Below are positions 2,138 to 53,129 of a DNA stretch of 64,000 bases, one piece after another. Below the pieces are notes generated by a model, which had not been told where the DNA came from, made no database searches, and saw nothing but the letters and a program-made list of their open reading frames with translations. The DNA is from Candidatus Sungiibacteriota bacterium (GTDB taxonomy: Bacteria > Patescibacteriota > Minisyncoccia > Sungbacterales > JACQCQ01), in assembly GCA_016201505.1 (NCBI GenBank), contig JACQCQ010000009.1:1991-65990 (forward strand), read 5' to 3'. Within the stretch, counting starts at the first letter, position 1. Each line of letters starts with the position of its first letter. The position numbers were made by a program, and so were the translations under genes.

Positions 2138-2226
2138 CATGCCGGAATCATTATTTACCGCGGCGCTTATCCAGCATTTGCTCCTCCGGCAATTTTTGAC
2201 ATTACCAATGGCGGGAGATAGGCTAT

Positions 2227-4108: not shown

Positions 4109-4160
4109 GCACACTCTGTATTCTCACTCTCTCCTAAGCTCGTCTAGCAGGCAGATGGCA

Positions 4161-4245
4161 GGCGGGGATTCCGCTGATCTCGCAAGAGTTCGCCTGAAAG
4201 CGAATTGCGAGATGCCACGGCCTCATGGCCGTGTAGCTTCATAAA
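4161..4245. repeat. REP-like double-hairpin element (copy A); copy B at 59195-59265
   Basis: Shared ggattccgcYgatctcgca...gcgaaNtgcgagat (hairpin 1) followed by ccacggcc..ggccgtg (hairpin 2) and gcttcat. Confidence 0.55.
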
Positions 4246-4253
4246 AAAAATAC

Positions 4254-4297
4254 CACCTCGCCCTGATCCGCCCGCTGGCGGGATCGAGGGCGAGGTG
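4254..4297 (-). terminator. Rho-independent terminator for the minus-strand gene 4326..4715
   Basis: ~19-bp GC-rich inverted repeat cacctcgccctgatccgcc/ggcgggatcgagggcgaggtg followed (minus orientation) by a T8 tract. Confidence 0.55.
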
Positions 4298-4325
4298 TGT
4301 GATGCAGGGAGCGCTGCTCCCTTAC

Positions 4326-4715
4326 CTACTTCGGGAAAGCGAAGACGGGTCCGTCGGCCAGGTTCTCGAGCCTCTTCGGCTTCAGCGGATCCACGAACCC
4401 GACCGAGACGGCGGTAGGCACCGTGCTCACGATCGAGGCGGCCGAGTCAATGGCGGTCAACGGCGTGTTAATGACGGCGGCTCCGAGGCCGGTGGCCACA
4501 CCGACGGGGCCGCGCTTGTCCACCTCGTCGCCGACGCTCTTGAAGGGGGCGAGCCCGACGTTGGCTGCGCCGACCACGACGGTCTGGACGCCGTCCCAGA
4601 GGCCCATGAGCGGGTTCGAGTTCACCTTGACCTTGATGTCCGCAGCCGCCGCCGGGGCCGGCGCGACCAGGATTAGAGCGAAAACCGCCATCACTATGAT
4701 GCCGAGTGCTTTCAT
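4326..4715 (-). CDS. Hypothetical small secreted protein (GC-rich islet)
   Basis: Signal peptide MKALGIIVMAVFALILVAPAPAAAAD and an SD-like GGGAGGG upstream. Confidence 0.45.
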   Translation of the reverse strand: MKALGIIVMAVFALILVAPAPAAAADIKVKVNSNPLMGLWDGVQTVVVGAANVGLAPFKSVGDEVDKRGPVGVATGLGAAVINTPLTAIDSAASIVSTVPTAVSVGFVDPLKPKRLENLADGPVFAFPK

Positions 4716-4896
4716 GTTCCCTCCCGGGGGATGGGGTGAACTGCGCCTACTTCGTGTGCTGAAGAAACCATACCACGCTCGTCAGTTCTTTTAAGCGGAC
4801 TTATCCACACCTGTGTATAATTCAAGCCGCAAAAGCACATAGTATAAAGAGAGATACTTCGGGTCGCAGTCAAGCCCAAGAAAAGGGAGGCGGCCA

Positions 4897-5334
4897 ATGA
4901 AGGTGCTCTTTGTCATTCTAGTCATGCTCGCGATGGTTGCCGGATCGGTTCCGGCGGCGGGACAGCCAACCCTGCCTCTCTTCAATCCCTACCCGGGAGT
5001 GACGCAGGAGAAGATGGACACGGACACCAAGTACTGCCTGAACTTCGCCACCGTTCAGGTAACGACGCAAGTGCCCGGCCAAGATAACACCGGCCGCGAC
5101 GCGGCTGTCGGCGCGCTCGGCGGTGCCGCTACCGGTGCCGCCATCGGTGCGATCGCCGGGGGTGGCAAAGGCGCCGGCAAAGGCGCTGCGATCGGTGGTC
5201 TGGCGGGACTCATTTTCGGTGGGCTATCTGGCGCAAGCCAGGCACAGTCGAGTCAAACCCAAACGACGCCCATGCTTGATGGAAATCGATATGCCGCCTG
5301 CATGAACCAGTTGGGATACCCGCGCGTGCCGTAG
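4897..5334 (+). CDS. Glycine-zipper (YMGG/Pcp-like) small secreted/membrane protein
   Basis: GxxxG/AxxxG zipper run AVGALGGAATGAAIGAIAGGGKGAGKGAAIGGLAGLIFGG, signal peptide, and SD GGGAGG upstream. Confidence 0.55.
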   Translation: MKVLFVILVMLAMVAGSVPAAGQPTLPLFNPYPGVTQEKMDTDTKYCLNFATVQVTTQVPGQDNTGRDAAVGALGGAATGAAIGAIAGGGKGAGKGAAIGGLAGLIFGGLSGASQAQSSQTQTTPMLDGNRYAACMNQLGYPRVP

Positions 5335-5359
5335 CCGGTGATCCCCAGGAGGAGAAAAG

Positions 5360-5890
5360 ATGATCACTACGACGACACTGCAGTCAAACGGGGCTGGAGT
5401 TACCGCCAAGTCAAGAAGCATGGGCACTCGCCAGGACGGCCTTGTCGGTTGGAAGCTGGTGCTGCCGATCGTTCTCGGCCTGCTCGCAATGTTTGCCTTC
5501 TCGACGGGGATCATGCTCGCGGCAGATCACGGCGGACGGACGCTGCGTAACGCCGTCATGACGACCTGGCTGCTCGCGTTCTTCTATCCGATCAGCATGC
5601 TCTTCCTGACGCTCGTTCTCGTGCGGATCGGCTGTCAGATCTCGAGATACCCGCCGAGTTCGAAGCTCACCAGCTGGGGATCGAATGCCCCCGGACTCGC
5701 AGTCGGGGTTCTTCTGCTCGCTGTGTTCATTGGTCTAAAGATTCTCACGGGGATGCCGACGAAGACGGGAGCAGAAGCGCTTCAGTCACTGCTCACCTAC
5801 TTCTGCGCCTTGGCGGTCCTGGTGGCCATCTGCGAGGTTGTCCGCTGGCTGGGGCGAGAGATCACGCATCCAGCCTTGAGCCTCATGTAG
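5360..5890 (+). CDS. Hypothetical polytopic membrane protein (GC-rich islet)
   Basis: SD CCAGGAGGAG upstream; 4-5 predicted TM helices. Confidence 0.5.
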   Translation: MITTTTLQSNGAGVTAKSRSMGTRQDGLVGWKLVLPIVLGLLAMFAFSTGIMLAADHGGRTLRNAVMTTWLLAFFYPISMLFLTLVLVRIGCQISRYPPSSKLTSWGSNAPGLAVGVLLLAVFIGLKILTGMPTKTGAEALQSLLTYFCALAVLVAICEVVRWLGREITHPALSLM

Positions 5891-5922
5891 CAGAGGTACT
5901 GCTACATGATCTCGGCTTCGAG

Positions 5923-5964
5923 AGCCGGCCGCTTCCTTCATCTGAAGCGACCGGCTATTTTTTT
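5923..5964 (+). terminator. Rho-independent terminator after 5360..5890
   Basis: Inverted repeat agccggccgcttc/gaagcgaccggct followed by a T7 tract. Confidence 0.55.
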
Positions 5965-6080
5965 GTCAATCGATTTTACTACCACACCAGAAAGCCTCGT
6001 CTCTAAAGACGCGAGTGAATGATTAAAAAATGCCACGCCTTAGTCAGAAAGCCGCGGATTTGCACCCGTGGTGTGGGGGT

Positions 6081-21594: not shown

Positions 21595-23187
21595 TCAAAT
21601 AGTGGCAGGCGTTTCTGTCCGCGACAATCTAACTTTTGGTGTCACCCAAAACCCCATGTAGCGCCCCAGCATGAGCCGCGTTTCGGCATCAATTCCCGGG
21701 ATTGAACCAAACACAATGAGCGTTATCGGAATCAAAACCCACTGAAGCGCAATCCAGAGATAGTGACGCGGGGAGCGATGCGCGGGCCGCGGCGGCAGAA
21801 GTTTTAATGAATATATGGCAGAAGTTATCATGCCGATGGAGGCAAGCGTCATGAGATAGCGCGTAATCCGCGGCAGGTTGTAGGCCAGCACCGAGACTTC
21901 AAATTTGTGCCCGCCGATTACAATCGGCAGCCAGCCGAGCAAAAAAATCATCAGCGCGTTTGTGCCGATTGACCAGAAGCCCTCGATTTGATTAAAACCA
22001 AAGAACAATTTTTTGGAGAATGGAATTTTTTTGTTTTTTACGAAACCGAATAAAAGATAAGGCACGTTTTCCACTCCCCAAATCCAGCGGCGCTGCTGGC
22101 GGTAGACATTTTTGACGGTCTCATATGTTGTTGGTGCCAGATTCGCGTCCATCGAAACGGGATAATACAACGGGACGACTTCATAGTTGCCGTCATAATA
22201 CATAAGCGCTTGCCAGAAGATGCGCGAGTCCTCCGAGACCATATTGGTGTGCCAATAATTCATTTCGGCGAGGGGTGAGAGCGGAATCGAGTGCGAGGAA
22301 AACGTGGCCAGGCGCTCCGGCCGGGCTTGTTGCATCATCTGCCAAAACGTGCCGGATGTGGCGACAACTCGCGAAAAGGCCGACGCGTCCCAGACGTTGT
22401 TGTTGTAGACCGGAATCGGCTGGAATGACGAGTAGAGAGGTTTTCGAGCCGTGATATATGAATACGTGAGTATGCCGAAATATTCCGGGTAGACTTCGGT
22501 ATCAACATCAAATGAGGAAACCAGGACGTGCTGATAAGGGATATGATTTCTATCGATCAGTTCGGGTATGGCGGTTTTGGCCGCATATGATTCGTTTGAA
22601 CCCTTGCCGGGAATCTCACCGGCCAGGTTCGCCGGATGCTTTGTAACGAGAATTGAGCCAAAGTGCTTGGAAAATTCATTTTTGGCGCGGATGGCATCGG
22701 CTTCCGCCTCCTGCCCGGCCCGCTCCTCGGCCGCGAGAACTATAAAAAAGTTCTCCAGCGGATAATTTGATTTTACTATTGCGTCCAGCCCGCCCTTTAA
22801 AACTTCATAGGGTTCTTTATAGAAGGGAATGATGATAAGCTGTTTGATTTCGCGCCAGTCCGAAACCTGAAGTTCAGCCGCGTATTGACGGGGTACAAGC
22901 GCATCTAATTTTTCCCTCCAATTAATTTTTAGGTTCTTCTGCATTTCGTTAAATGAGTGACGCAGATGGAGCGAGAGAAAAATAGTTTTGAGTAGCCAAT
23001 AAATGTCAAAGGCAATGATGAAAAAGCTGGCGCCAATCGGGAAAAAGTATGAGGCGAGCACAGTGCCCGCAAGTGTCGCCCACATTAAAACCCCGGGCAA
23101 GATTTCAAAAAACCGGAATAGGGCGTAGTCGCCCGGTTTTTCAAAATCCGGCGCGTGAGCCGCTTTGAGATACCACTTTTCTTCCAT
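21595..23187 (-). CDS. Membrane-bound family-2 glycosyltransferase (processive, cellulose/chitin-synthase-like)
   Basis: Q(Q/R)xRW motif (YRQQRRWIWG), D-containing motifs (SSFDVDTE), multiple TM helices. Confidence 0.65.
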   Translation of the reverse strand: MEEKWYLKAAHAPDFEKPGDYALFRFFEILPGVLMWATLAGTVLASYFFPIGASFFIIAFDIYWLLKTIFLSLHLRHSFNEMQKNLKINWREKLDALVPRQYAAELQVSDWREIKQLIIIPFYKEPYEVLKGGLDAIVKSNYPLENFFIVLAAEERAGQEAEADAIRAKNEFSKHFGSILVTKHPANLAGEIPGKGSNESYAAKTAIPELIDRNHIPYQHVLVSSFDVDTEVYPEYFGILTYSYITARKPLYSSFQPIPVYNNNVWDASAFSRVVATSGTFWQMMQQARPERLATFSSHSIPLSPLAEMNYWHTNMVSEDSRIFWQALMYYDGNYEVVPLYYPVSMDANLAPTTYETVKNVYRQQRRWIWGVENVPYLLFGFVKNKKIPFSKKLFFGFNQIEGFWSIGTNALMIFLLGWLPIVIGGHKFEVSVLAYNLPRITRYLMTLASIGMITSAIYSLKLLPPRPAHRSPRHYLWIALQWVLIPITLIVFGSIPGIDAETRLMLGRYMGFWVTPKVRLSRTETPATI

Positions 23188-23188
23188 G

Positions 23189-23260
23189 TGCGCGCGCTAG
23201 GATTCGAACCTAGGACCCACTGTGTATAAGACAGTTGCTCTACCGCTGAGCTACGCGCGC
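23189..23260 (-). tRNA. tRNA with anticodon TAT (tRNA-Ile UAU), no encoded CCA
   Basis: RC reads gcgcgcgtagctcagcggtagagca-actgt-cTTATac-acagt-gggtc-ctaggttcgaatcctag-cgcgcgc-a, a regular cloverleaf. Confidence 0.6.
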
Positions 23261-28010: not shown

Positions 28011-31000
28011 ATGGATATCGGCGAAGTAAAAAATCGAGAAATAGTGGCGGAAATGCAGGAGTCGTATTTGGATTATGCGATGTCGGTTATTGTCTCTCGG
28101 GCTCTGCCCGATGTACGAGACGGATTAAAGCCCGTCCATCGCCGCATTCTCTATGCCATGCATTTACTCCATTTAACGCGCCAATCCAAACATCGAAAAT
28201 CGGCATTGGTGGTTGGCGAGGTGCTGGGTAAATTCCATCCGCACGGGGATGTGGCGGTGTATGACTCAATGGTGCGGCTGGCGCAGGATTTTTCGATGCG
28301 GTACCCCTTAATCGACGGGCAGGGAAATTTCGGTTCGGTGGACGGCGACGGAGCCGCCGCCATGCGGTATTGCATCACCGGCGATACGCGCGTTGTCACA
28401 GATAAAGGCCTTATTCCAATCCAAGAAATTTCCGAGAGCGGGCATGAAGACATCTCAATTTCTGTGTTATCAAAACATAGCATTCAAAATAAAGCGACCA
28501 AATGGTTTGATAGCGGATTTCATCCCACGATTAAAATCGAGACTCGTTCTGGTCAGTCGCTCCAAGGTTCATATAATCACCCTATTTTAATCTGGGCTAA
28601 AAATCCCGTAAGCGGATCGCCTGAATTTCGTTGGAAACTCTTAAGTCAATTGAAAATCGGCGACGTGGCAGTCGTTGATCGCAGGGCCGACACTTTGTGG
28701 CCTAAGGCCGAGCCTTCTCTTTTGCCATACGAGCCCAAAATTCTCGGCAGGAGACAAAAGAAAGTGTTGCCTCAATCTCTGTCTTCTGATCTTAGTTTTC
28801 TCTTAGGTTCATTAACCGCTGAAGGAACCTTAAAAGAACATGCATTGGGATTCTGCAGTAGTGACCTCAATTGGATAGAAGAGTTCAGTCAAAAATGGCA
28901 ACTGGTATTTCCCGATTGCAGATTGCATTCATTCCGGCGCAATCCAAATTCATACGGCAAAAAATCTTATTTTACTCATGAAATTCATTCTCGTCACGTC
29001 ATCGAGTTTCTTAAAAATTTGGGGCTCTCTCCGGTAAAATCAGTCGATCGACAGGTCCCCGGAGTCGTATTTAAAGGCACGAAGTCAACGGTCGCCTCAT
29101 TTTTACGAGCTTATTTTGAAGGCGGCGGGAGCATAAGCTTCAGCGGGAAAATGACAGAGTTGAGCTGTTGCTCGAAGAGTGAGATTCTTTTAAAACAAAT
29201 TCAAATTCTTCTGCTTCGTTTTGGGATCGCCTCCACGCGGCGATATGACCGCTATAAATTAACACACAAAATTTATATTCGCGGACTGGCTAATTGCCGT
29301 CTCTTCCAAGAAGCCATCGGCTTTAATTCCAAAGAGAAACAAGAAACGCTTGAAATGGCTATTCAAAGATTGCATAAAGAATACCCCGCGACAGATTTTA
29401 TTCCGTTCATCAGCGATTTTGTTCGAACGAATGAAAATCGGGCGGTTCGTTTTCGCGAGCGCAGCTTTATGCATAAGCCTAACTTCGATCGGTACGGCTC
29501 TCTTAAAACAAACGGCGAAGCAATTCTTAACCTTCTTCGACCAAGCATTCAATCGGAAATCGGATTTCTGTTTCAAGAATTAATTGAGCAGAATTATTTC
29601 TTTGATCCGGTGGTAAAAATTGAAGCGGGCGGAGTCCACAGAGTCTATTCTATTAAAGTTGAAAGCACCTGCCACTCATTTGTGGCGAACGGGTTTATCA
29701 ACCATAACACCGAAGCACGGATGGCCGATATCACCGCGCTACTCCTTGAAGACATTGATAAAGAGACCGTTGACTTCGCGGATAACTATGACGGGACGCA
29801 AAAAGAGCCGCGCGTTTTGCCGGCGGCGGTGCCCAATTTGTTACTAAACGGCACGCTCGGGATCGCGGTTGGCATGACCACCAATATTCCGCCGCACAAT
29901 TTAACTGAAGTCATTGATGCGGCCGTAACACTGATTGATAAACCCAAATCCACCAATGATGACCTGCTTGAATATGTAAAGGGACCCGATTTTCCGACGG
30001 GCGGCGTCATCTACAACGAAAAAGAAATTAGGGAGGCTTATGCCACCGGCAAGGGCTCGATTGTGATGCGCGGGGTGGCGGAAATTGGCGAAAAGAAAAA
30101 CGGCTATCAGATCATCATCAGCGAAATCCCCTATCAGGTAAATAAATCCGAGTTAATCGAGAAAATTGCCGATCTCGTAAAAGAAAAAAAGATTGAGGGC
30201 ATCCGCGATCTGCGTGATGGGTCGGATCGGGAAGGTATGCGCATTGAGATTGACCTAAAAGCCGACAGCTATCCGCAGAAAGTTTTAAATAATCTATTTA
30301 CGCATACGGATCTAGAAAAGCGCTTTCATATCAATATGTTGGCGCTCGTCGACGGCATCCAGCCGCAGGTTCTGTCGCTTAAATCGATCCTGGAGGAATA
30401 TTTAAAGCACCGATTTCAAATTGTCACGCGGCGCAGCACATTTGATCTGGCCCGCGCCAAAGACCGCGCTCATATTTTAGAAGGACTGAAAAAAGCGCTC
30501 GACAATATTGATAAAGTTATCGACACGATTAAAAAATCGGCCGATCGGGACGTAGCGCGCGATAATTTAATCAAAAAGTTTTCTTTGTCCGAAAAACAAG
30601 CACTCGCCATTTTGGAGATGCGGCTGGCCACACTTGCTGGTCTCGAGCGGCAGAAAATCGAGGCTGAATTAAAAGAAAAACTGGCCTTAATCCGCGATCT
30701 GGAAGCCTTACTAAAAGATCCAGCCAAAATTCAGACGGTGATTAAAAAAGAATTAGTAGCTACACGCGAGAAATACGGTGATGAGCGGAAGACGAAAGTC
30801 ATCAAATCCGCCGTTCGCGAATTTTCCGATGAAGATTTGATTCCCGAAGAGGAGACACTGGTGGTGGTGACCCGCGGCGGCTACATCAAGCGGGTAAAAC
30901 CGGAATCCTACCGCATGCAAAAGCGCGGCGGCAAGGGGTTGATTGGCATTGAAACGAAAGAAGAAGACGTGGTCGAACATCTAGTTTCGGCGAGCACTCA

Positions 31001-31787
31001 TTCGGATCTTTTGTTTTTTACCTCATCCGGCAAAGTTTTTCAGGTGAAAGCCTATGAGATTCCCGAAGCCTCCAGGACCGCCAAGGGCAAGGCCATTTTT
31101 AATTTCCTTTCGGTAAATCAAGATGAATTAATCACCTCGATTTTAGCTGCTCCCAAAACGCGGGCGCGCCGCGGCGAAAGAGAAAAATCGGAATTCTTTG
31201 TGATGCTAACGCGCCGCGGCGTGATTAAAAAAGTAGAGGCCTCGGCTTTTGGCGATGTGCGACATTCGGGCTTAATCGCCATCGGCTTAAAATCAGATGA
31301 TACGCTGGGCTGGGTTAAATTAACCAATGGCGCCCATGATATTATCGCGGTCACTAAATTGGGCCAGGCCATCCGGTTCTCCGAGCGTGATGTCCGAGCC
31401 ATGGGACGTACCGCCTCCGGCGTTACCGCCCTGCGGCTTAAAAAATCAGACGAAGTCGTCGGCATGGACGTGGTGATTGATGCCGGCGCTAATCTTTTGG
31501 TTATCATGTCGCAAGGCTACGGCAAGAAGACCCCCTTAAAACAATATAAGCGGCAGAAACGCGGCGGCTCGGGCATTAAAACAGCCAAAGTCGTACCCAA
31601 AAACGGCTACGTCATTTCGACTCACGTCATCCAGGCTGAAGAAACCCAACTCGTCTGCATTTCGCGCAAAGGCCAGGTCATTCGGATTGAGCTTTCGGCC
31701 ATTCCAACGCTCGGCCGCGCCACCCAGGGTGTTCGCATCATCCGACTCGAGACCTCGGACGCGCTCGCCTCAATGACGACGTTTTAA
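28011..31787 (+). CDS. gyrA: DNA gyrase subunit A containing an in-frame intein (extein ~812 aa)
   Basis: GyrA N-terminus ([21 protein letters not shown]), active-site AAMRY followed by CITGDTRV (intein N-terminus). ...FINHN|TEARMADI restores the GyrA sequence, and the C-terminal beta-pinwheel repeats follow. Confidence 0.9.
28371..29708 (+). mobile_element. GyrA intein (446 aa) with LAGLIDADG homing-endonuclease domain
   Basis: Cys1 after MRY (canonical gyrA-a insertion site) and C-terminal HN followed by Thr+1. Internal LAGLIDADG-like blocks [10 protein letters not shown] and [12 protein letters not shown]. Confidence 0.8.
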
Positions 31788-32411: not shown

Positions 32412-33719
32412 ATGCTGAAAAATCTCAAATCTAAAATTATAGCTTTCGCTGTTGCGGGGTTTGTCATTTTGTTGGCCATGCTGATTTTGACTGGTGTCAT
32501 TTCGCCGTTTAAAGCTAAGCCCGTCTCCGGCCAAGTTACGGTCTGGGTGCCGCCGCAATATAAGAGCGCCATGGCTCCAATAGTTACTTCTTTTCAATCT
32601 CAATACCCGGCGGTCAAGGTGACGCTAGAGGAAAAAAACGAGACGACCTACGAGACCGATTTAATCAATGCTCTCGCCTCCGGCGCGGGGCCGGATGTCA
32701 TCCTCCTGCCTTCTTCTGATATTGGTCTTTGGCAAAATAAGTTACTCCCCGCTCCTAGAACGAATGTCCTAACACTTGATCAATTTGAGTCCCAAGCCCC
32801 TGACGCGGCGATTGCCGACCTGGTAACGCAAAAAGGCGAGATGCTCGGCCTTCCGCTCTCCGTCGATACGTTGGCGCTCTACTATAATAAGGATTTGTTT
32901 AACGCGGCCAATATCATTAGTCCGCCGCAAACCTGGGATGATTTTGCCGCCGCTTCAGGCCTCATGGTGGCCCGTTTAATAAACGGCGACCTGACTCAAT
33001 CCGGCGCCTCGATCGGAACGGCGCAAAATGTAAATCATTTTTTTGAGATTCTTTCTGAACTGATTTTGCAAACGGGAAATCCGATCGCGACACTGGATGG
33101 GCATGTAACACTCGCGGATAAAACCGGCGACTCCTACCCCGCTCTTTCGGCGCTTAACTTCTACACCTCCTTCGCCGATCCCTCAAATAAAAACTATTCT
33201 TGGACGAATGCCGGCCCCAATTCGCTTGAGGCCTTCGCCCAAGGCCAGGCGGGCATGTATTTCGGCTATGCCGCTGATTTAGAGACGATTATTACCAAAA
33301 ACCCGCATCTTAATTTCAGCGTGGCGCCCTTCCCCCAGCTTGCCAAAGGCAGCCGCAAATCGTTCGCCCGCTATCCGGTTTTAGCGGTCACGCGCGCCTC
33401 GACCAATCCAACTATTGCCTGGGCTTTCATCAGTAATTTTTATACCGCGGCCAATCAAAAAATTCTGATTGACGCGCTTGGCCTTCCGCCGGCGCGGCGC
33501 GATTTGATACATTCGTTGCCGCCGAATAAAATTTTGCGCCCCTTTTATGATCAGGTGCTGTCCGGCCAGTCCTGGCCCATTCCGGATTACGGCCGCGCGC
33601 AGTCTATTTTCCGCACGATGATTGAGTCGGCCGTATCGGGCGGCTCGATTGGTTCGGCTGATGCCATCAGTCGGGCCGCAGGCCAATTAAAACTTTTGTT
33701 AAATCCCAATGGCCAGTAG
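32412..33719 (+). CDS. Extracellular solute-binding protein (ABC transporter, family 1; orphan)
   Basis: N-terminal TM/signal, MalE-like length and composition. No permease genes adjacent. Confidence 0.6.
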   Translation: MLKNLKSKIIAFAVAGFVILLAMLILTGVISPFKAKPVSGQVTVWVPPQYKSAMAPIVTSFQSQYPAVKVTLEEKNETTYETDLINALASGAGPDVILLPSSDIGLWQNKLLPAPRTNVLTLDQFESQAPDAAIADLVTQKGEMLGLPLSVDTLALYYNKDLFNAANIISPPQTWDDFAAASGLMVARLINGDLTQSGASIGTAQNVNHFFEILSELILQTGNPIATLDGHVTLADKTGDSYPALSALNFYTSFADPSNKNYSWTNAGPNSLEAFAQGQAGMYFGYAADLETIITKNPHLNFSVAPFPQLAKGSRKSFARYPVLAVTRASTNPTIAWAFISNFYTAANQKILIDALGLPPARRDLIHSLPPNKILRPFYDQVLSGQSWPIPDYGRAQSIFRTMIESAVSGGSIGSADAISRAAGQLKLLLNPNGQ

Positions 33720-34650
33720 AAAAATAATTATAATCTTTTTTAGTCTCTTGGGGCTCGCGCTGGTTGCTTCGCCGATTCTCGTCATGTCGCAAAGCTCGGG
33801 GATTGTGCCGTGCGGCAACGGCGGCGGGCTTTCTGGCTGGATACCCTGCACCTTCTGCGACTTTTGGGGGCTGTTAAAAAATCTGATTGATTTTATCGCC
33901 GTAAAGTTAGCGCTCCCGCTCGCGGTCATTATGTTCATCTACGCCGGATTTCGCTATGCGTTTTCCGCCGGCAAGGAATCAAACATTAGCGCCGCGCGCG
34001 AGATTTTAACCCAAACGGCGATCGGCCTTTTAATCGTCTTCGGCGTCTATTTCATAACCGATACTTTGATAAAAATTATCGCCGGCGGCGCGCCGAAAGC
34101 CATAGAAAATCTTGGGCCCTGGAGGAATCCTTTTGAGCCCGGCAAATCAATCTGCACGCCACCTGTTTCAGTCCCCATTTCAAAAGAACCTCCCGTTCCT
34201 TACCCCCGATCAAATGATCAGTCAATTCCTTTGCCGCAGGGAACATTGTCACGGGCTGACGCCGTCGCTCGATTACAGGCGGGAGGGGTAGATACGGGGT
34301 TTATCAGCGCCGAATGTTCTCCCGGTGTCGGTCGCGGGTGCACTTCTCTATCCGGCGTTCTACCCTCGACCATTGATGGCGCCGTCGCCCTGCAAAAGGC
34401 CTGTGATGCGGCAACAAGCGGCGAGAGATGCCAATTATTGATTACCGGGGGCACCGAGACGGGGCACTCTGACAACGGCGTTACGCACGCCAGTGGTCAA
34501 AAATTAGATTTTGCAAATTCACCCACTCTCTATCGCTACCTGCAACGCTTGCCTGATATGGGCAATGGCGTTCGGCAAGGACCGGATGGAACACTCTATA
34601 GATTTGAAACTAATCCGTTTCACTGGGATGTCGCATTCCCCAAGAAATAA
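33709..34650 (+). CDS. T4SS-pilin-like (VirB2/TrbC-type) N-terminal domain fused to a peptidase M15-like (D-Ala-D-Ala/L-Ala-D-Glu peptidase) domain
   Basis: Signal peptide, then IVPCGNGGG...CTFCDFW...LPLAVIMFIYAGFRYAFSAGKE..AREILTQTAIGLLIVFGVYFI (the pilin module). C-terminal half carries the M15-like zinc-ligand spacing ITGGTETGH...THASGQKLDF...FHWDV. Confidence 0.5.
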   Translation: MASRKIIIIFFSLLGLALVASPILVMSQSSGIVPCGNGGGLSGWIPCTFCDFWGLLKNLIDFIAVKLALPLAVIMFIYAGFRYAFSAGKESNISAAREILTQTAIGLLIVFGVYFITDTLIKIIAGGAPKAIENLGPWRNPFEPGKSICTPPVSVPISKEPPVPYPRSNDQSIPLPQGTLSRADAVARLQAGGVDTGFISAECSPGVGRGCTSLSGVLPSTIDGAVALQKACDAATSGERCQLLITGGTETGHSDNGVTHASGQKLDFANSPTLYRYLQRLPDMGNGVRQGPDGTLYRFETNPFHWDVAFPKK

Positions 34651-34671
34651 TATTTCGCCTACAATAGACCT

Positions 34672-35529
34672 ATGGAAATTTCAATCATGAAGTCGGGATC
34701 CCGACGTATCGTCGGGATTGTTTCCGCATTTTGTTTCCTGTCGCTTGTTTTCTGTATTCCGGCTTTCACATCTGCTCAAACTGCCTACCCCAATCCGATT
34801 GATCCGATCAACTCCATTCCGGCGCTGGTTGATGGTTTGGCGAATTCAATCAAGCCCATTGTTATCACCTTATCCGCCATTTCGATTTTGATCGGCGCGT
34901 TTTTGTATGTCACTGCGGGCGGGGATGAGAAAAAAATTAAAACAGCCCATGCCGCGCTGACCTATGGTGTTCTGGGCATCATCATCATGCTTTCCGCCAG
35001 CACGATTTCAGAGACCTTAAAAAGTTTTGGCGACCAAGCCAAAGGCAAAAGCCCGCAAGAGTTCCTTGACTTTATCATCAATCTCTTTGGGACGTTAATT
35101 ATGGCGATTTCGGTATTCGCCATTTTGTATGCCGCGTTTCTTTACATCACTTCTGGCGGAGATACCACAAAAGTCTTCCAAGCCAATCGGCTTATTTTAT
35201 ACGCGGTGGTAGGTATCGCTATTGCGGTACTCGCCAAGATCATTCCTAAGGCGTTAGAAACACTCCTTCCCTCCGCCGGTTCAGGCCCGATTTCAAATCA
35301 AATCAGCACGCTCGCTGGCAGAATCGCGCAGGCTTTTGGCACCATCGTGATGGCCGCCTCGGTTCTGGCCGTTCTCTACGCCTCATTCTTATTTGTAACG
35401 GTAACAGAGGATTCTGATCGGGCCACGACCGCGCGCCGCGTTCTGCTCTATGCCTTAATCGGCGTAGCAGTTGGCCTTTTGGCGTATATCATTCCAAATG
35501 TCATTTTGAAATTTGCCCAGTCGTTATAG
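34672..35529 (+). CDS. Protein with three tandem T4SS-pilin-like modules
   Basis: Signal peptide then three repeats of [TM helix]-LY(V/I)T(A/S)GGDxxK-[TM helix], for example ILIGAFLYVTAGGDEKKIKTAHAALTYGVLGIIIMLSA. Confidence 0.5.
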   Translation: MEISIMKSGSRRIVGIVSAFCFLSLVFCIPAFTSAQTAYPNPIDPINSIPALVDGLANSIKPIVITLSAISILIGAFLYVTAGGDEKKIKTAHAALTYGVLGIIIMLSASTISETLKSFGDQAKGKSPQEFLDFIINLFGTLIMAISVFAILYAAFLYITSGGDTTKVFQANRLILYAVVGIAIAVLAKIIPKALETLLPSAGSGPISNQISTLAGRIAQAFGTIVMAASVLAVLYASFLFVTVTEDSDRATTARRVLLYALIGVAVGLLAYIIPNVILKFAQSL

Positions 35530-35590
35530 TACCTTTCTGCGGCTGGGGATAAGTTTTTTCTAAAGTAAGGGTCGATTCTATATAATAAAG

Positions 35591-36013
35591 ATGCTGGAAA
35601 GTACTCAATTTTTGGTTAAGAATTTTATGAAATATCACTCATTACTCAAAATAGGCACTGTGGCGACAGTTGTTGTTTCGTTAGGTCTTTTTATCCCGCA
35701 AATCTCCGGTGCGGCTGCGGTCCCTACGCCATCGTATGCGCCAAATAATACCGGCACCATAAGTGATTTTCCGAATTTTATCTCGAGACTAGGTGGGAAC
35801 GTTGCTAATATTTTTGGGACACTTATTTTGGCTATTTCTGTGATTATGATTCTCTATTCAGCTTTTTTATTTCTCACTGCACAGGGTGATGCGACAAAAC
35901 TTACCACAGCTCGTAACGTGTTACTTTTTGCTTTGGTTGGTGTAGCAGTAGCATTGCTGGCATATATTCTGCCGAATGCTGTAAGTAATTTTGTTCAAAC
36001 AAACGTACAATAG
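35591..36013 (+). CDS. T4SS-pilin-like protein (single module)
   Basis: Signal peptide then ILAISVIMILYSAFLFLTAQGDATKLTTARNVLLFALVGVAVALLAYILPN. Possible start at 35627. Confidence 0.5.
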   Translation: MLESTQFLVKNFMKYHSLLKIGTVATVVVSLGLFIPQISGAAAVPTPSYAPNNTGTISDFPNFISRLGGNVANIFGTLILAISVIMILYSAFLFLTAQGDATKLTTARNVLLFALVGVAVALLAYILPNAVSNFVQTNVQ

Positions 36014-36032
36014 TCATACAGCAAACAAGAAA

Positions 36033-36093
36033 CCGCCCAGCTCCCCTTGCGGGGAACTGGGCGGTCTTCGTTTCGCGGGGCATCCGCGAAACG
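36033..36093. terminator. Two consecutive hairpins forming a bidirectional terminator between convergent genes
   Basis: ccgcccagctcccc-ttgc-ggggaactgggcgg and cgtttcgcgg-ggcat-ccgcgaaacg. Confidence 0.6.
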
Positions 36094-36099
36094 GTTGGG

Positions 36100-37356
36100 T
36101 CAGGATTTCGCTTGCGGCGTTACCCTGACCGTGAAGACGGCTCGCGCGACTTTGTCGCGCGAGCGCTCCTGAACAAGAAGACGCAGGTCGGAGAGCCCAG
36201 GTTTCTCCGGCAAGGGGAAACTTCCCATTGTCGGCTCGCCGTTTTGGCAGGGCCAGCGAACGTTCTCGTACTTCCATTCGCTGGTTTCCGCGTTGAACGT
36301 CGCGAGATTGGTCTCGACATCGCAAAGAGCAACCGGCAGGCCGTTACCGGCCCTTTCGCCAGTCAGTCCCTCGCGGTACTCGAGCACCGACTCCGATTTG
36401 GCGAGAATCGGCCGCGAGACCAGTTTCCACTTGGTGTCGGTCGGCTGGATGACGACGTCCTCCCGCCAAGCCTCGACCGCGATCTGCCGCGGCGTGAAGC
36501 TTGTCGCCGGCCGCGACGTGATCCAGTTGTGCCCCCACATGAGACCAAGTCCCACCAGGAGCACAAGCACTGCGAGCGCTACCTTCTGTGTGAACCAGCT
36601 AAGCACCACCGCCGTCTTGGTACCGGCTGCAGCGACTTGCCGCTTCTCTCTCATCGCGAGGATGATCAAGATGGCGGCAACGGCAACAGCGAGGAACCGG
36701 AGGATGGTGGCGTAAGGCGTCCACCAGCTGGACGAAAAGATCGTCTGCTTATCGAAGACCGTCCGCCAGCTTGCATCGCTCGGATACAGCCAACAGCCGA
36801 GGCTCACCAGCACATGGATCGCGAAGATGACAAGGACCAATTTCTTGATCCGTCGCGATCCACTCTGGTCCCAAACCCCGTAGAAAATTGCCAACCCGAT
36901 GCAGCCGAGGAAGACCATGAAGGCAACCTCGGGCCGCTCATCAACGGGGAGCCAGACTTCGGCGAAGCCGATCATCATCAGGACGCAGACGACGCCTGCG
37001 GCGAGTTGTAGATACTTTTTTGCCGACTCGATGATGATGTGGGCGATGCGCTCGTCTCGCACGGGCGACGTAGCCGGTTGCCGATTGAACAGAGTCTCCA
37101 GCTCGATACCGATCACGGCACGCCGCCACTCGAGCCAGAAGAAGATTCCCATGCCGATCGGCATGGCGACGTCGAGCGCCACGAGCTTCTGGTAGAAGCC
37201 GTAGGCTCCGGCGATTCCGCCTGCCAGGATCAGCCCGAGCGTAGCAAGAACGGCCACGAAAACCGAGTTCCGCAGCCGGCGCAGCTCGGTCAGGTGCCAG
37301 GTCAGAGCCTCCTGGATCGTGTGGATAATGGTCATGAAGGTTTGCATTAGATCCAC
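36100..37356 (-). CDS. Hypothetical polytopic membrane protein with C-terminal soluble domain (GC-rich islet; third gene of an overlapping operon)
   Basis: ~8 TM helices; its start overlaps the upstream gene's stop by 10 nt; GC-rich. Confidence 0.5.
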   Translation of the reverse strand: MDLMQTFMTIIHTIQEALTWHLTELRRLRNSVFVAVLATLGLILAGGIAGAYGFYQKLVALDVAMPIGMGIFFWLEWRRAVIGIELETLFNRQPATSPVRDERIAHIIIESAKKYLQLAAGVVCVLMMIGFAEVWLPVDERPEVAFMVFLGCIGLAIFYGVWDQSGSRRIKKLVLVIFAIHVLVSLGCWLYPSDASWRTVFDKQTIFSSSWWTPYATILRFLAVAVAAILIILAMREKRQVAAAGTKTAVVLSWFTQKVALAVLVLLVGLGLMWGHNWITSRPATSFTPRQIAVEAWREDVVIQPTDTKWKLVSRPILAKSESVLEYREGLTGERAGNGLPVALCDVETNLATFNAETSEWKYENVRWPCQNGEPTMGSFPLPEKPGLSDLRLLVQERSRDKVARAVFTVRVTPQAKS

Positions 37357-37958
37357 CTCCTCCAGCCGCGGGCGTTTCGAGCGTTGATGGCCCGGAGGCC
37401 ATAAGCAATTCGATCGATTTGCTGTGCGACCGCCTGGTCAGCCGCAGCCAGTCTCGGCAGTGTCGTTTGGGCTACCACATGGATGGCCATCTTCAGAAAC
37501 TCGGCCAGTCCATCATTATGGTAGATTCCGAGACGTGCGATGAAGTTCGCGACTCCCTGTCGGGGGTCGGAATCCCAGAGCAACTGCTCAAGCTCAGGGT
37601 AAACCTTAGCACGGTCTCGCTGGGGAACCTTCGTCAACATGTTGACGATCCAGTTCTCCCGCGTGTACGTGTCACCGACAGGGATGAATCCCCCTTCGGT
37701 ATTCATGTACTCGAGGAGCTGCACGATCCTCTGGCAGTTGAACCTGCCGAGGTCCTGTACCATCTCGATGCGGTCGGTATCGAAGATGTGGCCGAGTTCT
37801 CGGCCAAACCCCTCCGCCGCACGCCGGTGGCGCTCTTTCGGGTCGCTCGTCATCTCGGCATCAGGATTATGCTTGTGCCAGAAATGTAACCCGACCCCGA
37901 GAACGCTCCAGAACAGCGTTTCCGTCCCGACCTCTTTCAGCCAGTCAGGGATTCTCAT
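37347..37958 (-). CDS. Hypothetical protein (GC-rich islet; second gene of the operon)
   Basis: ATGA start/stop overlap with the upstream gene; His-rich N-terminus (HFWHKHNPD). No confident family. Confidence 0.5.
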   Translation of the reverse strand: MRIPDWLKEVGTETLFWSVLGVGLHFWHKHNPDAEMTSDPKERHRRAAEGFGRELGHIFDTDRIEMVQDLGRFNCQRIVQLLEYMNTEGGFIPVGDTYTRENWIVNMLTKVPQRDRAKVYPELEQLLWDSDPRQGVANFIARLGIYHNDGLAEFLKMAIHVVAQTTLPRLAAADQAVAQQIDRIAYGLRAINARNARGWRRWI

Positions 37959-38551
37959 GGCTTCAGTCCTTTCAGCCAGCTCTTGTCAGCCGGCCCGAAG
38001 TTTTTCCCCGGGAGAATTTTCTCCCAGATGAGTTCATCGTTGAGTCCGGCGATGACGCGAACGAGTGCACCCTCGTTTCCCGTGAAGGAAAATGAGAGCG
38101 AACCATCCGCTTCAGTCTTGAGGTTCGACTGCTTGATTCCCGCGACCTCGACAGTCACGGGACAGTCACCGATCAGCTGATCATCCGCGTCCGCGGCGCT
38201 GATAAGAAGACGCCAGTTGCCCGGCTCGCCCGTGTCGCTCACGCGGAGCTTCGCGGGCTTCTTCTTTTCCCTCATCTTCGGGGTCTCGATCGTCTCACGC
38301 GCATGATCTTCCAAAGCTTCGCACTGCGCGGTGATGAGATAGTTCCCCGCGGCAAGACCCGACCATTTGTAATTTGCACGACCGTGGTCGCTTGTCCGCC
38401 TTTCCTCTTGCGCGGCGATGCCGTTCAAAAAAAAGGTGACACGCTTGTTGATGTCTGGTTGCCTGCGTTCTCTTACGAGAACAGTCGCTTCGACTGTCCC
38501 CATGTCACCTTCTTTATTGGCGACGGTTTTGAGACTTATCCAGTCCGCCAT
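37955..38551 (-). CDS. Hypothetical protein with two carboxypeptidase-regulatory-like (transthyretin-like beta-sandwich) repeats (GC-rich islet; first gene of the operon)
   Basis: SD AGGAGGA upstream; repeats VTFFLNG..SGLAAGNYLITAQ and VTVEVAG..TEADGSLSFSF. Confidence 0.45.
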   Translation of the reverse strand: MADWISLKTVANKEGDMGTVEATVLVRERRQPDINKRVTFFLNGIAAQEERRTSDHGRANYKWSGLAAGNYLITAQCEALEDHARETIETPKMREKKKPAKLRVSDTGEPGNWRLLISAADADDQLIGDCPVTVEVAGIKQSNLKTEADGSLSFSFTGNEGALVRVIAGLNDELIWEKILPGKNFGPADKSWLKGLKP

Positions 38552-42810: not shown

Positions 42811-43908
42811 ATGGAATCGGAGTTCGGCCATCCCAAAACCCCGCCTCGTGCGCCGCTTTTTTGGTTTTGGGTTATAACCAGCGCCATGGGCGTAATTTTG
42901 ATGCTGGGGTTTGGCTGGCTCGTCTACGAAGTTTATCTGCCACACACGTCATTTTTCGGCGAGAAGAAAATTGTGATACCGGCAAGTTACGGCTCACGCC
43001 TGATCGGCGATCTTTTAAAACAAGGAGGTTTTATCGGCTCTAAATGGGCTTTTGTAACCTATGCCACGTTTAAAAATCAAGCTTCAAGTTTAAAGCCGGG
43101 GACATACTCTTTCTCGGAAAACTCGACAATGATTGAGATTTTGCATAATCTCGTCGTCGGCGAGCCGTATGCCAACGAGCGCTTTGTCGTTATTCCCGAG
43201 GGCTGGAATCTTGGCGACATCGGCCATTATTTAGAGACAGAGAATATTGTCGCATCCAAAGAATTTTGGCGCGTCGCCGGATATCCCGCCAAGGATTACA
43301 CTTTTGCGCTGGCCTCATCCAGACCAGAAGATTTTAGCCGAGACTTTCCCTTCCTGGTTGGTAAAAATAATGGCACGGGACTCGAGGGCTACTTGTTTCC
43401 CGATACCTATCGCGTCTATCGGAACGCCACGGCTGAAGATATTGCCAAAAAAATGCTGGCCAATTTTAAAACCAAGGTGATTGGCGCCTACGGCGATGAA
43501 GTCTTGGGCCAAAATAAAAAACTGGCCGATATTATTACGGTTGCCTCATTAGTTGAAAAAGAAGTCAGGCAAGACAATGACCGTGCGGTTGTGGCGGGAA
43601 TATTATGGAAACGGCTTAGCGCAGGCTTGCCTCTGCAAGTCGACGCAAGCTTAATTTATATTCGCGGCGTAAGTGGCGCGCCGATCACCGCACGCGACAA
43701 AGAGAGCCTTTCCCGATTTAATACCTATCGCTATCCGGGCCTGCCGCTCGGCCCGATTTCGAATCCGGGAATTTCAGCCATCACCGCGGCACTGCATCCG
43801 AACAATTCGCCCTATCTCTATTATCTTTCCGCGCCCGACGGAACGACGATATTTTCCAAGACTCTAGCCGAGCATAATGCGGCCAAAGCGAAGTTTCTCG
43901 GCAAATAG
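42811..43908 (+). CDS. mltG: Endolytic murein transglycosylase MltG (YceG family)
   Basis: N-terminal TM anchor, YceG-like blocks (LVEKEV, LQVDASLIY, YNTYRYPGLP). Confidence 0.8.
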   Translation: MESEFGHPKTPPRAPLFWFWVITSAMGVILMLGFGWLVYEVYLPHTSFFGEKKIVIPASYGSRLIGDLLKQGGFIGSKWAFVTYATFKNQASSLKPGTYSFSENSTMIEILHNLVVGEPYANERFVVIPEGWNLGDIGHYLETENIVASKEFWRVAGYPAKDYTFALASSRPEDFSRDFPFLVGKNNGTGLEGYLFPDTYRVYRNATAEDIAKKMLANFKTKVIGAYGDEVLGQNKKLADIITVASLVEKEVRQDNDRAVVAGILWKRLSAGLPLQVDASLIYIRGVSGAPITARDKESLSRFNTYRYPGLPLGPISNPGISAITAALHPNNSPYLYYLSAPDGTTIFSKTLAEHNAAKAKFLGK

Positions 43909-51071: not shown

Positions 51072-53129
51072 TTGTGCTATAATTCCTACATGTTCAGGAA
51101 AGTATCAGTCGGTATCGTTATTAGTTTTGCTTTGGCTACGCCTTTAATGAGTTGGGGACAAAACAATCCGCCAACTTCAAATTTGCAGGCACTCATAGAG
51201 CAACTTCAGACACAGATAAAAACTCTGCGGGGGCAGGTAGTATCACTTCAGGCACAGCTTGAAACCACCAAAAAAGAAGTGGCCGAGGTGAAAGAAGAAC
51301 TCAAAATCACTCGCTCACTTCAGAGAGGAGTAAGCGGCGATGAAGTAAAGAAACTTCAAGAATTCCTGAAGAAGTTCCCGGACATTTATCCGGAGGGATT
51401 AGTGACCGGTTACTTCGGCCCCCTGACTGAGGCGGCAGTGAAAAAACTGCAAGAGAAACAAGGCATAGAGGCTATTGGCATTGTCGGCCCAAAAACTGCC
51501 ATAAAGATCAACGAACTCCTGACTCAAGGTGCTGGCGCTTCGGGTATTGTCCCGCCCGGACTCACTACTGCCCCCGGAATTCAGCAGAAGTTGGGTGAAA
51601 CGACAACCACCATCCCACCGACAGCCACCACTACAACTTCAACTTCAACTTCTACTCCACCCACGGCAATCGCAACTACTACTCTCGCTGTTACCCCAAA
51701 CACAGGCAGTTCTGCTGTGCCGCCTCCGGTGACTGCTTCGCCGCCGACTACCACGAGCACTACTGCCACCACGTCTACCAACGCGACATCGGACACAACG
51801 TCTCCCTCTGTGCCCACCAATTTGAGCGCATCCGCTGTTTCAACCAGCCAGATAAATCTTTCGTGGCTTAACTCTACGGATAATGTTGGGGTATCGGGAT
51901 ACAAAATTTATCGAAGCGGCGCGCAAATAGCGACCGCCGTTGCATCTACGTCAGCCACAGCAACCGCCGCCTATTCAGATACCGGCCTCCAAGCTTCCAC
52001 TGCGTATACCTATGCCGTCGCTGCCTATGACGCAACGGGAAATAATAGTGCTCAGTCAGCGAGTGCGAGTGCGACAACGCAGTCGCCGCCACCTGCTTAC
52101 AATACACCCCCCGTCATCTCATCTGTTGCGGTGTCTTCGATTACCTCAAATTCAGCCATGATTAGCTGGATAACCGATGTACCCGCTACTGGATTTGTAA
52201 ACTATGGCACACCGACTATCGGGATAGTTACTCCAGAAAATACTTCCTATCTTACGTCACATTCTTTTACCATCTCAAACTTAGCGGCCAGCGCGCTTTA
52301 TAATTTTAGAGTTTATTCTCATAATGCGTATGGAGATCAAACCGATTTGGTCAGTGGCTATCCGCCCAATCGTACTTTCACAACTTTGAGCGGTCCTCCA
52401 TCTTGTTCAAGTATAAATGTAACCCTTAACGATGGTAAAACCACCTATATCAAAGGCGTAGATAATTTTGTGAATTATACTTGGACATGCGCTCCCGGTG
52501 GTTCAGCTGATGTAAATGTCGGGATTCAAAAACCGGGAGGCTGGATATCTCTTAATACAACCACGAATAGTCCAACACAAACTTTGTTTATTGATATTTC
52601 TAGTGATAGCTACCCGATAGGAACATACCGGTTAGAGGCCTGCTTCAATGTTTGCGGAAGTATTGTCGCCGGACAGACATTTAGTATTTCATCTCCGCCG
52701 GTCGACACCACACCGCCTGTCATTTCTTCACTTAGAGTGGATGTCGCTTATAGTTCTGCCATGGCCTCATGGACTGCCCTTCCTGTCTGGATTACAGATG
52801 AACCTTCTACATCACAGGTAGAGTTTGGATTAACATCTTCCTATGGCACTATAACCCCGCTTGATTCGTCCGGAGCCTTTCTGCGTACGGTGCATTCCAT
52901 TATTCTTTCCCCGGAATACGGATATAACCTCACCAGCAACACGACTTACCATTACAGAATGATATCAAAAGATGCTCAGTGGAATTCTGCTGTCAGCGGC
53001 GATTATACATTTACGACCGCCTCATCTACCACCTCTGCAGATTTTACTCATTCTAATTTAGCTTCTATTTTTGAATCTTTGCGATCTTTAGCCCTAATAC
53101 TTCAAAAACTTCAGAGCTTATTTCATTAG
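51072..53129 (+). CDS. Large secreted surface protein: coiled coil, peptidoglycan-binding (PG_binding_1-like) domain, Thr/Ser/Pro-rich linker, fibronectin-III-like domains
   Basis: Signal peptide. GVSGDEVKKLQEFL...LVTGYFGPLTEAAVKKLQEKQG (PG-binding-like). Linker TTTTSTSTSTPPT. FN3-like SPSVPTNLSASAVSTSQINLSWL..GVSGYKIYRSG. Confidence 0.65.
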   Translation: MCYNSYMFRKVSVGIVISFALATPLMSWGQNNPPTSNLQALIEQLQTQIKTLRGQVVSLQAQLETTKKEVAEVKEELKITRSLQRGVSGDEVKKLQEFLKKFPDIYPEGLVTGYFGPLTEAAVKKLQEKQGIEAIGIVGPKTAIKINELLTQGAGASGIVPPGLTTAPGIQQKLGETTTTIPPTATTTTSTSTSTPPTAIATTTLAVTPNTGSSAVPPPVTASPPTTTSTTATTSTNATSDTTSPSVPTNLSASAVSTSQINLSWLNSTDNVGVSGYKIYRSGAQIATAVASTSATATAAYSDTGLQASTAYTYAVAAYDATGNNSAQSASASATTQSPPPAYNTPPVISSVAVSSITSNSAMISWITDVPATGFVNYGTPTIGIVTPENTSYLTSHSFTISNLAASALYNFRVYSHNAYGDQTDLVSGYPPNRTFTTLSGPPSCSSINVTLNDGKTTYIKGVDNFVNYTWTCAPGGSADVNVGIQKPGGWISLNTTTNSPTQTLFIDISSDSYPIGTYRLEACFNVCGSIVAGQTFSISSPPVDTTPPVISSLRVDVAYSSAMASWTALPVWITDEPSTSQVEFGLTSSYGTITPLDSSGAFLRTVHSIILSPEYGYNLTSNTTYHYRMISKDAQWNSAVSGDYTFTTASSTTSADFTHSNLASIFESLRSLALILQKLQSLFH

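Follow-up and report, generated by a model that had tools for sequence, protein, structure and literature searches.

A gyrA-linked array of VirB2-like hairpin proteins in Candidatus Sungiibacteriota, with a Hedgehog-like domain on its first member

Three adjacent pilin-like genes

We analysed a 64,000-nucleotide stretch of contig JACQCQ010000009.1 from Candidatus Sungiibacteriota bacterium, an ultrasmall and probably host-dependent organism (hereafter the window), which set the scope of our open reading frame (ORF) listing, of the Pfam and NCBIfam scans and of the tRNA and RNA scans. The window contains three adjacent genes, all on the plus strand, whose products are related to the pilins of type IV secretion systems (T4SS). 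The ORF listing confirmed their arrangement and their coordinates as first annotated: gene A (33709–34650) encodes 313 residues, gene B (34672–35529) 285 residues and gene C (35591–36013) 140 residues, with the real start of gene C possibly at the ATG at 35627. The products of A and B are identical to HY220_02265 and HY220_02270, hypothetical proteins on a 140,836-bp contig of a Candidatus Sungbacteria metagenome-assembled genome (MAG). Directly upstream lies a gene for a membrane-anchored solute-binding protein (SBP; 32412–33719, plus strand), which matches SBP_bac_1/SBP_bac_8 at 104–106 bits in Pfam and has an N-terminal transmembrane (TM) segment; the end of this gene and the start of gene A share 11 nt. 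On the other side of the array, gene C and the gene at 36100–37356 converge, and a 17-bp G+C-rich inverted repeat (36030–36067) between their stops probably acts as a bidirectional terminator closing the array. The promoter scan was uninformative, with 10 sites against 8.7 expected.

Gene A is composed of five segments. Its signal-peptide-like segment (residues 1–28; 33709–33792) has a hydropathy peak at residues 6–24 and a predicted helix at residues 2–27, with a putative cleavage site. This is followed by an extracytoplasmic cysteine motif, G-I-V-P-C-G...C-x2-C (residues 31–50; 33799–33858), and by a PF18895-like two-helix membrane hairpin (residues 47–127; 33847–34089), modeled as helices 49–84 and 90–124. 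A flexible proline-rich linker (residues 128–178; 34090–34242), visible in the sequence and modeled with a pLDDT of 42–53, leads to a C-terminal domain with the Hedgehog/DD-peptidase (LAS) fold (residues 179–313; 34243–34647). Gene B encodes a signal peptide and three concatenated pilin-like hairpins with six TM helices, as judged from Pfam, NCBIfam and hydropathy. Module 1 comprises residues 41–123 (34792–35040), module 2 residues 125–202 (35044–35277) and module 3 residues 203–285 (35278–35526). Gene C encodes a protein with a single hairpin.

The five modules (A, B1–B3 and C) share pairwise identities of 19–51%, with B3 and C being 51% identical. The modules of gene B are merely 28–39% identical to one another, which excludes repeat collapse. 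A hidden Markov model (HMM) of the five modules found no extra copy in the six frames of the window. Gene B matches PF18895 (T4SS_pilin) in three stretches with 59.2 bits, well over the Pfam gathering cut-off of 26.6 bits, whereas A (20.2 bits, E 6e-4) and C (16.5 bits, E 9e-3) fall below it. Nevertheless, A and C can indirectly be placed in the same family because C is 51% identical to B3 and because A-type orthologs from two related loci exceed the cut-off (L011, 34.7 bits; L012, 27.5 bits). For PF04956 (TrbC/VirB2), A reaches 17.1 bits (E 0.0066), short of the cut-off of 27.9 bits, and the Pfam scan gave no match in B or C. The two families are tied together by multi-module relatives (P0137, P0237 and P0271) that score 51–76 bits on PF04956. 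B also matches NCBIfam NF045849 in three stretches (43.4 bits; cut-off 40). Judged by sequence, the assignment of all three genes to the PF18895/VirB2-like T4SS_pilin family, as proposed in the initial annotation, is sound; the word pilin itself presumes a function for the whole PF18895 family.

Hydropathy analysis reveals a signal-like N-terminus in each protein, followed by two TM helices in A, six in B and two in C. Each hairpin consists of two TM helices joined by a short polar loop, in agreement with the AF2 helices in A. The sole structural hint of a pilus came from a Foldseek comparison, in which the hairpin weakly matched the T-pilus VirB2 of A. tumefaciens (8exh_A; E 1.6, TM-score 0.54 on the target). 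The five-module profile matched no solved pilin among the PDB sequences; its matches there to a designed coiled coil and to Prp8 were dismissed as chance. Provided that the signal peptide is removed, both ends of each hairpin would lie outside, proteins with one, two or three hairpins would share the same topology, and the C-terminal half of A would be positioned outside the membrane.

The initial annotation had described a motif, LY(V/I)T(A/S)GGDxxK, as common to all modules. Its literal form occurs only in B1 and B2, while B3, C and A carry the variants FLFVTVTEDSDR, FLFLTAQGDATK and FRYAFSAGKESN, respectively. The IVPCG...C..C motif reported for gene A is real, with G31, V33, P34, C35, G36, C47 and C50 invariant among five A-type orthologs.

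The C-terminal domain of gene A

In the initial annotation, gene A ended in a domain of about 170 residues with the zinc-ligand spacing of M15 peptidases. The domain is in fact shorter, about 135 residues (179–313), following the proline-rich low-confidence linker of about 50 residues. When residues 130–313 were compared with Pfam and NCBIfam, no model matched, M15 included, even at E ≤ 1. Searches against PDB sequences with phmmer (gene A) and with profiles built from 5 and from 106 C-terminal domains returned nothing significant. The profiles produced matches to Sonic hedgehog (Shh) at E ~0.8, which we took as a lead and not as proof. In particular, the 106-sequence profile aligns weakly but specifically with Shh, placing ITiTGG.TEtGH...sHwnGyKlD on LRVTEGWDEDGHH...LHYEGRAVD, the latter stretch of which is the Shh zinc motif H141-x6-D148 (PMC6027127).

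Structural comparison identified the Hedgehog N-domain as the best match of the gene A domain. It also named other LAS structures, including LdcB, VldE, the S. albus zinc DD-peptidase, VanXYc, Ply500, LysB4 and VanXYg, and we conclude that the domain adopts the Hedgehog/DD-peptidase fold. The H-X6-D zinc-ligand motif is present as H260-ASGQKL-D267; both ligand residues are invariant in the 106 sequences and align with H141-x6-D148 of Shh. The second motif published for LAS enzymes is H-X-H, preceded by a catalytic Glu (PMC6027127). In gene A, this region reads E300...H305-W-D307, with an Asp at the position where the second His would be expected, while the homologs P0003, P0004 and P0006 have H-W/Y-H. 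All 13 positions that are invariant among the 106 members are retained in A, namely C-T-S, T-G-G-T-E (246–250), H253, H260, G263, K265 and D267. Approximately 20 further positions are near-invariant, and among these E300, H305, W306 and D307 are kept in A. The domain thus adopts a LAS fold in which putative metal-binding and catalytic residues are conserved, and may bind zinc and cleave peptidoglycan. It is not demonstrable as an M15 member, its nearest structural relative being Hedgehog-N. The earlier M15 assignment therefore holds at the superfamily level, in fold and in the H-x6-D...H spacing, and fails at the level of the Pfam M15 families.

With a profile built from five homologous domains, 151 proteins were recovered, most of them short secreted proteins or lipoproteins from Micromonospora, Streptomyces, Nocardioides and Deinococcus. 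Fungi, a springtail, an annelid and Pelomyxa contribute others, and some members are fused to PG_binding_1, an indirect hint at peptidoglycan as a possible substrate. Ten standalone members rescanned with Pfam gave no M15 match. The gene A domain and P0007–P0126 share the signature C-T-S...T-G-G-T-E-x-G-H...H-x6-D...E-x-N-H-W-D, and the family, which is large and has no Pfam model, spans Actinobacteria, Deinococcus, Planctomycetes, fungi, springtail, annelid and Pelomyxa. It resembles a family of Hedgehog-like peptidases that has yet to be named.

The window also encodes a pair formed by a DsbA-like thioredoxin (PF13462/PF01323) and VKOR (PF07884) at about 2227–3298 on the plus strand, with a counterpart at 2011–3076 of locus L014. 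This extracytoplasmic disulfide-forming system is relevant to gene A because the latter contains the conserved C35, C47 and C50 as well as four cysteines in its LAS domain.

A conserved slot with variable content

Related loci were collected from homologs of A and B and from GTDB species representatives scanned with an N-terminal A-type alignment. In 13 of the 14 loci carrying a homolog, the genes follow the order GyrA, small methyltransferase (MTase), SBP and PF18895 genes. An SBP gene immediately precedes the array in the window and in 13 of the 14 loci; the remaining one, L001, is cut about 100 nt ahead of its gene. GyrA of the syntenic loci is 54–81% identical to that of the window. FtsH and S1 are often encoded upstream, and the flanks contain MurJ, RelA, TopA, aminoacyl-tRNA synthetases, Band_7, LytR and similar genes. 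No T4SS gene was found within 10 kb of the array in the syntenic loci. Within the window, all ORFs of at least 500 residues and most of at least 150 residues were scanned, and no VirB4, VirB6 or VirD4 was found, in agreement with the initial annotation. The scanned ORFs are housekeeping or cell-wall genes, including those for an aminoacyl-tRNA synthetase, TsaD, RecG, FtsH, S1, GyrA, RNase Y, iPGM, trigger factor, MltG, UppS and L10, accompanied by nine tRNAs. A few ORFs have no family match or a weak sub-threshold one, such as that at 21595–23187 (530 residues). Given this housekeeping neighborhood, syntenic across species with GyrA 54–81% identical, we rejected an origin from a mobile element or prophage.

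The first gene of the slot is always of the A type, with the invariant V-P-C-G...C-x2-C, while the remaining content varies. Counted as modules per gene, the window has one plus the LAS domain, three and one. L007 and L009 have two, two and one, and L008, which reaches a contig end, shows the first two genes. L010 has three single-module genes and L013 five. In L005, two modules with a Cys-rich tail are followed by one. L002 has one module plus an SLT domain, L012 the same followed by four further genes, and L011 one module joined to an unrelated C-terminal domain. The array is expanded to an extreme in L016 (9005–14262), where GyrA-MTase-SBP is followed in the slot by eight consecutive PF18895 genes, among them the one for the seven-module protein P0133. 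Compared module by module, A, B1 and C of the window have clear counterparts in L007, while B2 and B3 are ambiguous; simple fusion and fission of a fixed five-module array, from 1/3/1 to 2/2/1, is therefore only partly supported.

The C-terminal heads of the first gene are exchangeable. Gene A lacks an SLT domain (PF01464), which its orthologs in first position of the slot in L002 (P0005) and L012 (37.7 bits) possess. Across the slot, orthologous first genes thus carry a LAS peptidase, an SLT transglycosylase, an extra pilin module or no head at all. Over their first 169 residues, P0003, which has a LAS head, and the protein of L011 share 64% identity, after which the similarity ends; in sequence terms this is a clean domain swap. 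The A-type protein of L011 (9935–10750) ends in a Cys/His-rich domain (…CHYGG…FAFDF…ETTHGH…) that has no Pfam match and could represent a further divergent head of the metallopeptidase kind. Assembly errors or frameshifts were rejected as the origin of such fusions, as the pilin-LAS architecture recurs in independent samples (P0002–P0004 and P0006).

The three concatenated PF18895 modules of gene B, which the initial annotation had taken to be undescribed, are indeed present, and proteins of this kind proved to be abundant. An exhaustive search of 1.84 billion cluster representatives with a profile of the five modules, using no word index, retrieved 46,052 proteins at E ≤ 0.001. Nearly all of the best 150 contain two to eight matched stretches, many of them three; P0133, for example, has seven stretches in 606 residues and P0137 eight in 820. 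When ten relatives were rescanned with Pfam, two to eight PF18895 stretches were recovered, with five to eight in the six longest.

Several further features of the window were observed around the array. The SBP gene has no adjacent ABC permease or ATPase. Downstream, a minus-strand block (36100–38551) converges on the array and encodes a 418-residue polytopic membrane protein with no Pfam match (36100–37356), a 203-residue protein of unknown family and a 198-residue protein with sub-threshold similarity to Big_1. The G+C fraction of this block is 0.59, compared with 0.50 for the window. In L009, the block also lies beside the array, at 0.61 compared with 0.51, with 27–31% identity, and a functional link to the array is possible. 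GyrA of the window (28011–31787, plus strand) is 1258 residues long, compared with 816–857 in most relatives; that of L011 is also long (1220 residues). BLAST against the relatives splits GyrA into two segments, and the insert, which starts at ...MRY|CITGDT and ends at ...NGFINHN|TEARM, is consistent in sequence with an intein.

ARAGORN predicts a tRNA-Ile with the anticodon TAT (UAU) at 23188–23260 on the minus strand; this anticodon is an uncommon route for reading AUA in bacteria. A second G+C-rich stretch (0.60, compared with about 0.50) is located at 4001–6000, where the Rfam scan found no RNA family. The plus strand also encodes a 685-residue protein with PG_binding_1 and fibronectin-III domains (51072–53129) and the endolytic transglycosylase MltG (42811–43908).

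Known relatives and possible functions of the array

Tandem arrays of 2–11 divergent VirB2-like pilin genes have been described in Patescibacteria, with 441 arrays in 383 assemblies, a mean identity of 25% and a maximum of 54% (PMC12102498). According to a 2025 review, no T4SS of monoderm bacteria other than those of Patescibacteria has VirB2-like pilins (PMC12857230). Among freshwater-specific structure clusters, PF18895 has also been reported to rank first of the Pfam domains (10.1101/2025.04.23.650224). In the one system tested, S. epibionticum, the pilin series of the T4SS cluster is essential for epibiotic growth (PMC10633639). We compared the window with the arrays of S. epibionticum ML1 (SEML1_0006–0019) and of N. 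lyticus TM7x ('Sec-secreted array') (PMC12102498, PMC10633639, PMC12857230). The published definition of an array is at least two pilin genes of low identity, in tandem or one gene apart (PMC12102498); the window has three genes with five modules at 19–51%. As in the Patescibacteria T4SS arrays, its proteins are PF18895/PF04956-like, combine a signal peptide with two-helix hairpins and are tandem same-strand paralogs of low identity. The cluster therefore belongs to a known kind and is not a new class of system, and no novelty attaches to the tandem array as such, since divergent VirB2-like arrays in Patescibacteria have already been published (PMC12102498, PMC10633639). The MAG is not listed in the supplement of that survey, in which 'HY220' has no occurrence (PMC12102498).

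The window array differs from the T4SS arrays in lacking virB4 or any other T4SS neighbor, occupying a gyrA-MTase-SBP slot instead, and in having a hydrolase-fused gene and a three-module concatemer. Concatemers and pilin-hydrolase fusions are not mentioned in the three studies that we compared, although they may be described elsewhere (PMC12102498, PMC10633639, PMC12857230). The initial annotation suggested that the array might be an orphan system, which is not established. The array occupies a conserved core slot beside gyrA and the SBP gene, and among the 1,948 VirB4-positive assemblies with VirB2-like pilins, these lie near virB4 in 1,135 and away from it in 813 (~40%) (PMC12102498). Gene B also resembles the Mycoplasma pilin-like protein Mbov_0395/MMCAP2_0565 (NF045849), encoded on an integrative and conjugative element (ICE), with a score above the cut-off over three stretches. 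Unlike this single 80-residue module of a mobile conjugative element, the modules of the window are concatenated and located at a non-mobile housekeeping site.

Wall hydrolases of T4SS, such as VirB1, PrgK of pCF10, TraG of pIP501 and TcpG, are separate proteins with their own anchors. Gene A shares with them a proposed local opening of peptidoglycan for an envelope-spanning machine. Its hydrolase-like domain is membrane-tethered, as in the Gram-positive PrgK, TraG and TcpG, and the SLT domain of VirB1 is found in the gene A orthologs of L002 and L012. In contrast to these hydrolases, the anchor of gene A is a VirB2-like hairpin instead of a simple TM helix, and its domain has the LAS fold instead of SLT, CHAP or LytM. 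The LAS peptidases considered were ShhN, VanX (M15D), VanY (M15B), the S. albus G DD-carboxypeptidase (M15A), MepA (M74) and the phage L-Ala-D-Glu endolysins (M15C). Unlike these enzymes, the gene A family has no M15 match, displays H-W-D in A (H-W-H in some homologs), contains four cysteines and has its own signature, C-T-S...T-G-G-T-E-x-G-H.

On balance, we lean slightly towards the view that the array encodes VirB2-type envelope subunits, the first of which carries a wall-opening activity in cis. This chromosomal core-genome array of a Paceibacteria/Sungbacteria cell would be transcribed together with the upstream SBP gene, transcription ending at the strong hairpin 3' of gene C. Each protein would be exported by Sec and its signal peptide removed, and each two-helix hairpin would reside in the membrane with both ends outside, whatever the number of hairpins. 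The modules may build a VirB2-type fibre or conduit, either through a Patescibacteria T4SS encoded elsewhere or on their own. Gene A could serve as a specialised first subunit, with its outside C-terminus bearing a zinc-dependent LAS peptidase on a proline-rich tether of about 50 residues. This enzyme would cut peptide links locally in the cell's own wall, and possibly in that of the host, letting the structure pass and performing a VirB1-like job in cis. The recurrence of the fusion with either a peptidase or a transglycosylase suggests that the structure must cross peptidoglycan.

The genomic setting could also be read differently. The hairpins may be anchors or scaffolds of a housekeeping complex that works with the SBP independently of any T4SS. 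In such a complex, A could act as a tethered autolysin during wall growth or division; alternatively, the complex might secure an uptake apparatus within the wall. Such an arrangement would fit the linkage to gyrA-MTase-SBP and to housekeeping genes (FtsH, S1, MurJ, RelA, TopA and aminoacyl-tRNA synthetases), the overlap of the SBP stop with the first pilin gene next to an SBP that adjoins no ABC permease, and the lack of T4SS genes within 10 kb in any locus. VirB4 is moreover recorded as absent from three of the first six Sungbacteria assemblies listed in the published table, although MAGs may be incomplete, and three to eight fused hairpins resemble polytopic membrane proteins more than pilins. 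We nonetheless regard it as unlikely, if a serious contender, since the family is tied to T4SS elsewhere, both by its proximity to virB4 in most of the VirB4-positive assemblies and by its essentiality in S. epibionticum (PMC12102498, PMC10633639), and since NCBIfam connects the module to conjugal-transfer proteins of Mycoplasma ICEs. Fast diversification, changes in copy number and paralog identities of 19–51% likewise typify surface-exposed subunits, not scaffolds. A more elaborate proposal, which we consider rather improbable, is that the gyrA-linked SBP-pilin array is a conserved T4SS-independent envelope apparatus of Paceibacteria, with a wall-spanning fibre or conduit, exchangeable peptidoglycan-cutting heads on its lead subunit and a permease-less SBP that would use the structure to capture or import host molecules. 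Such an apparatus, whose hairpins would occur singly or in fused strings reaching seven or more, would, if true, put the VirB2 fold to a new use beyond type IV secretion.

The role of the head domain is likewise open to other readings. Its exchange between two unrelated wall-degrading folds recalls polymorphic effectors, and gene A could be an offensive enzyme whose LAS domain, or SLT in relatives, breaches host peptidoglycan at the contact site from the tip or base of the structure. The clade is thought to be epibiotic, a long flexible tether precedes the head, and standalone relatives are secreted in many organisms, one of them, the fungal P0104, being named 'putative effector protein' by its source. 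However, action on the cell's own wall is favored because no more than about 50 residues separate the head from the two-helix membrane anchor to which it is covalently joined. With no immunity gene evident and the first gene of L010 and L013 bare of any head, an offensive role appears quite improbable. We judge it very unlikely that the domain is a non-catalytic Hedgehog-like pseudo-peptidase that binds glycans of the wall or host, even though the peptidase activity of its best structural match, the Hedgehog N-domain, is debated (PMC6027127), A has H-W-D in place of H-X-H and no M15 HMM matches. The domain retains the Glu and every putative metal ligand, as well as the 13 invariant and about 20 near-invariant positions of the 106 members. 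In addition, a bona fide lytic transglycosylase replaces the LAS head in orthologs, which speaks for an enzyme being required in this slot.

Few Patescibacteria-specific proteins are as abundant and as poorly understood as the VirB2-like pilins. The features of this array that we did not find described in the studies compared are its fixed gyrA-MTase-SBP address, the hydrolase heads of two unrelated folds on its lead subunit and the varying partitioning of modules among genes. Natural pilin-hydrolase fusions provide Rosetta-stone evidence for the crossing of peptidoglycan, while natural concatemers constrain the possible packing of subunits. The fixed address by gyrA and the SBP gene, away from virB4, offers a comparative-genomics handle on the question of T4SS dependence. 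Finally, the work points to a large cross-kingdom family of Hedgehog-like peptidases that has no Pfam model.

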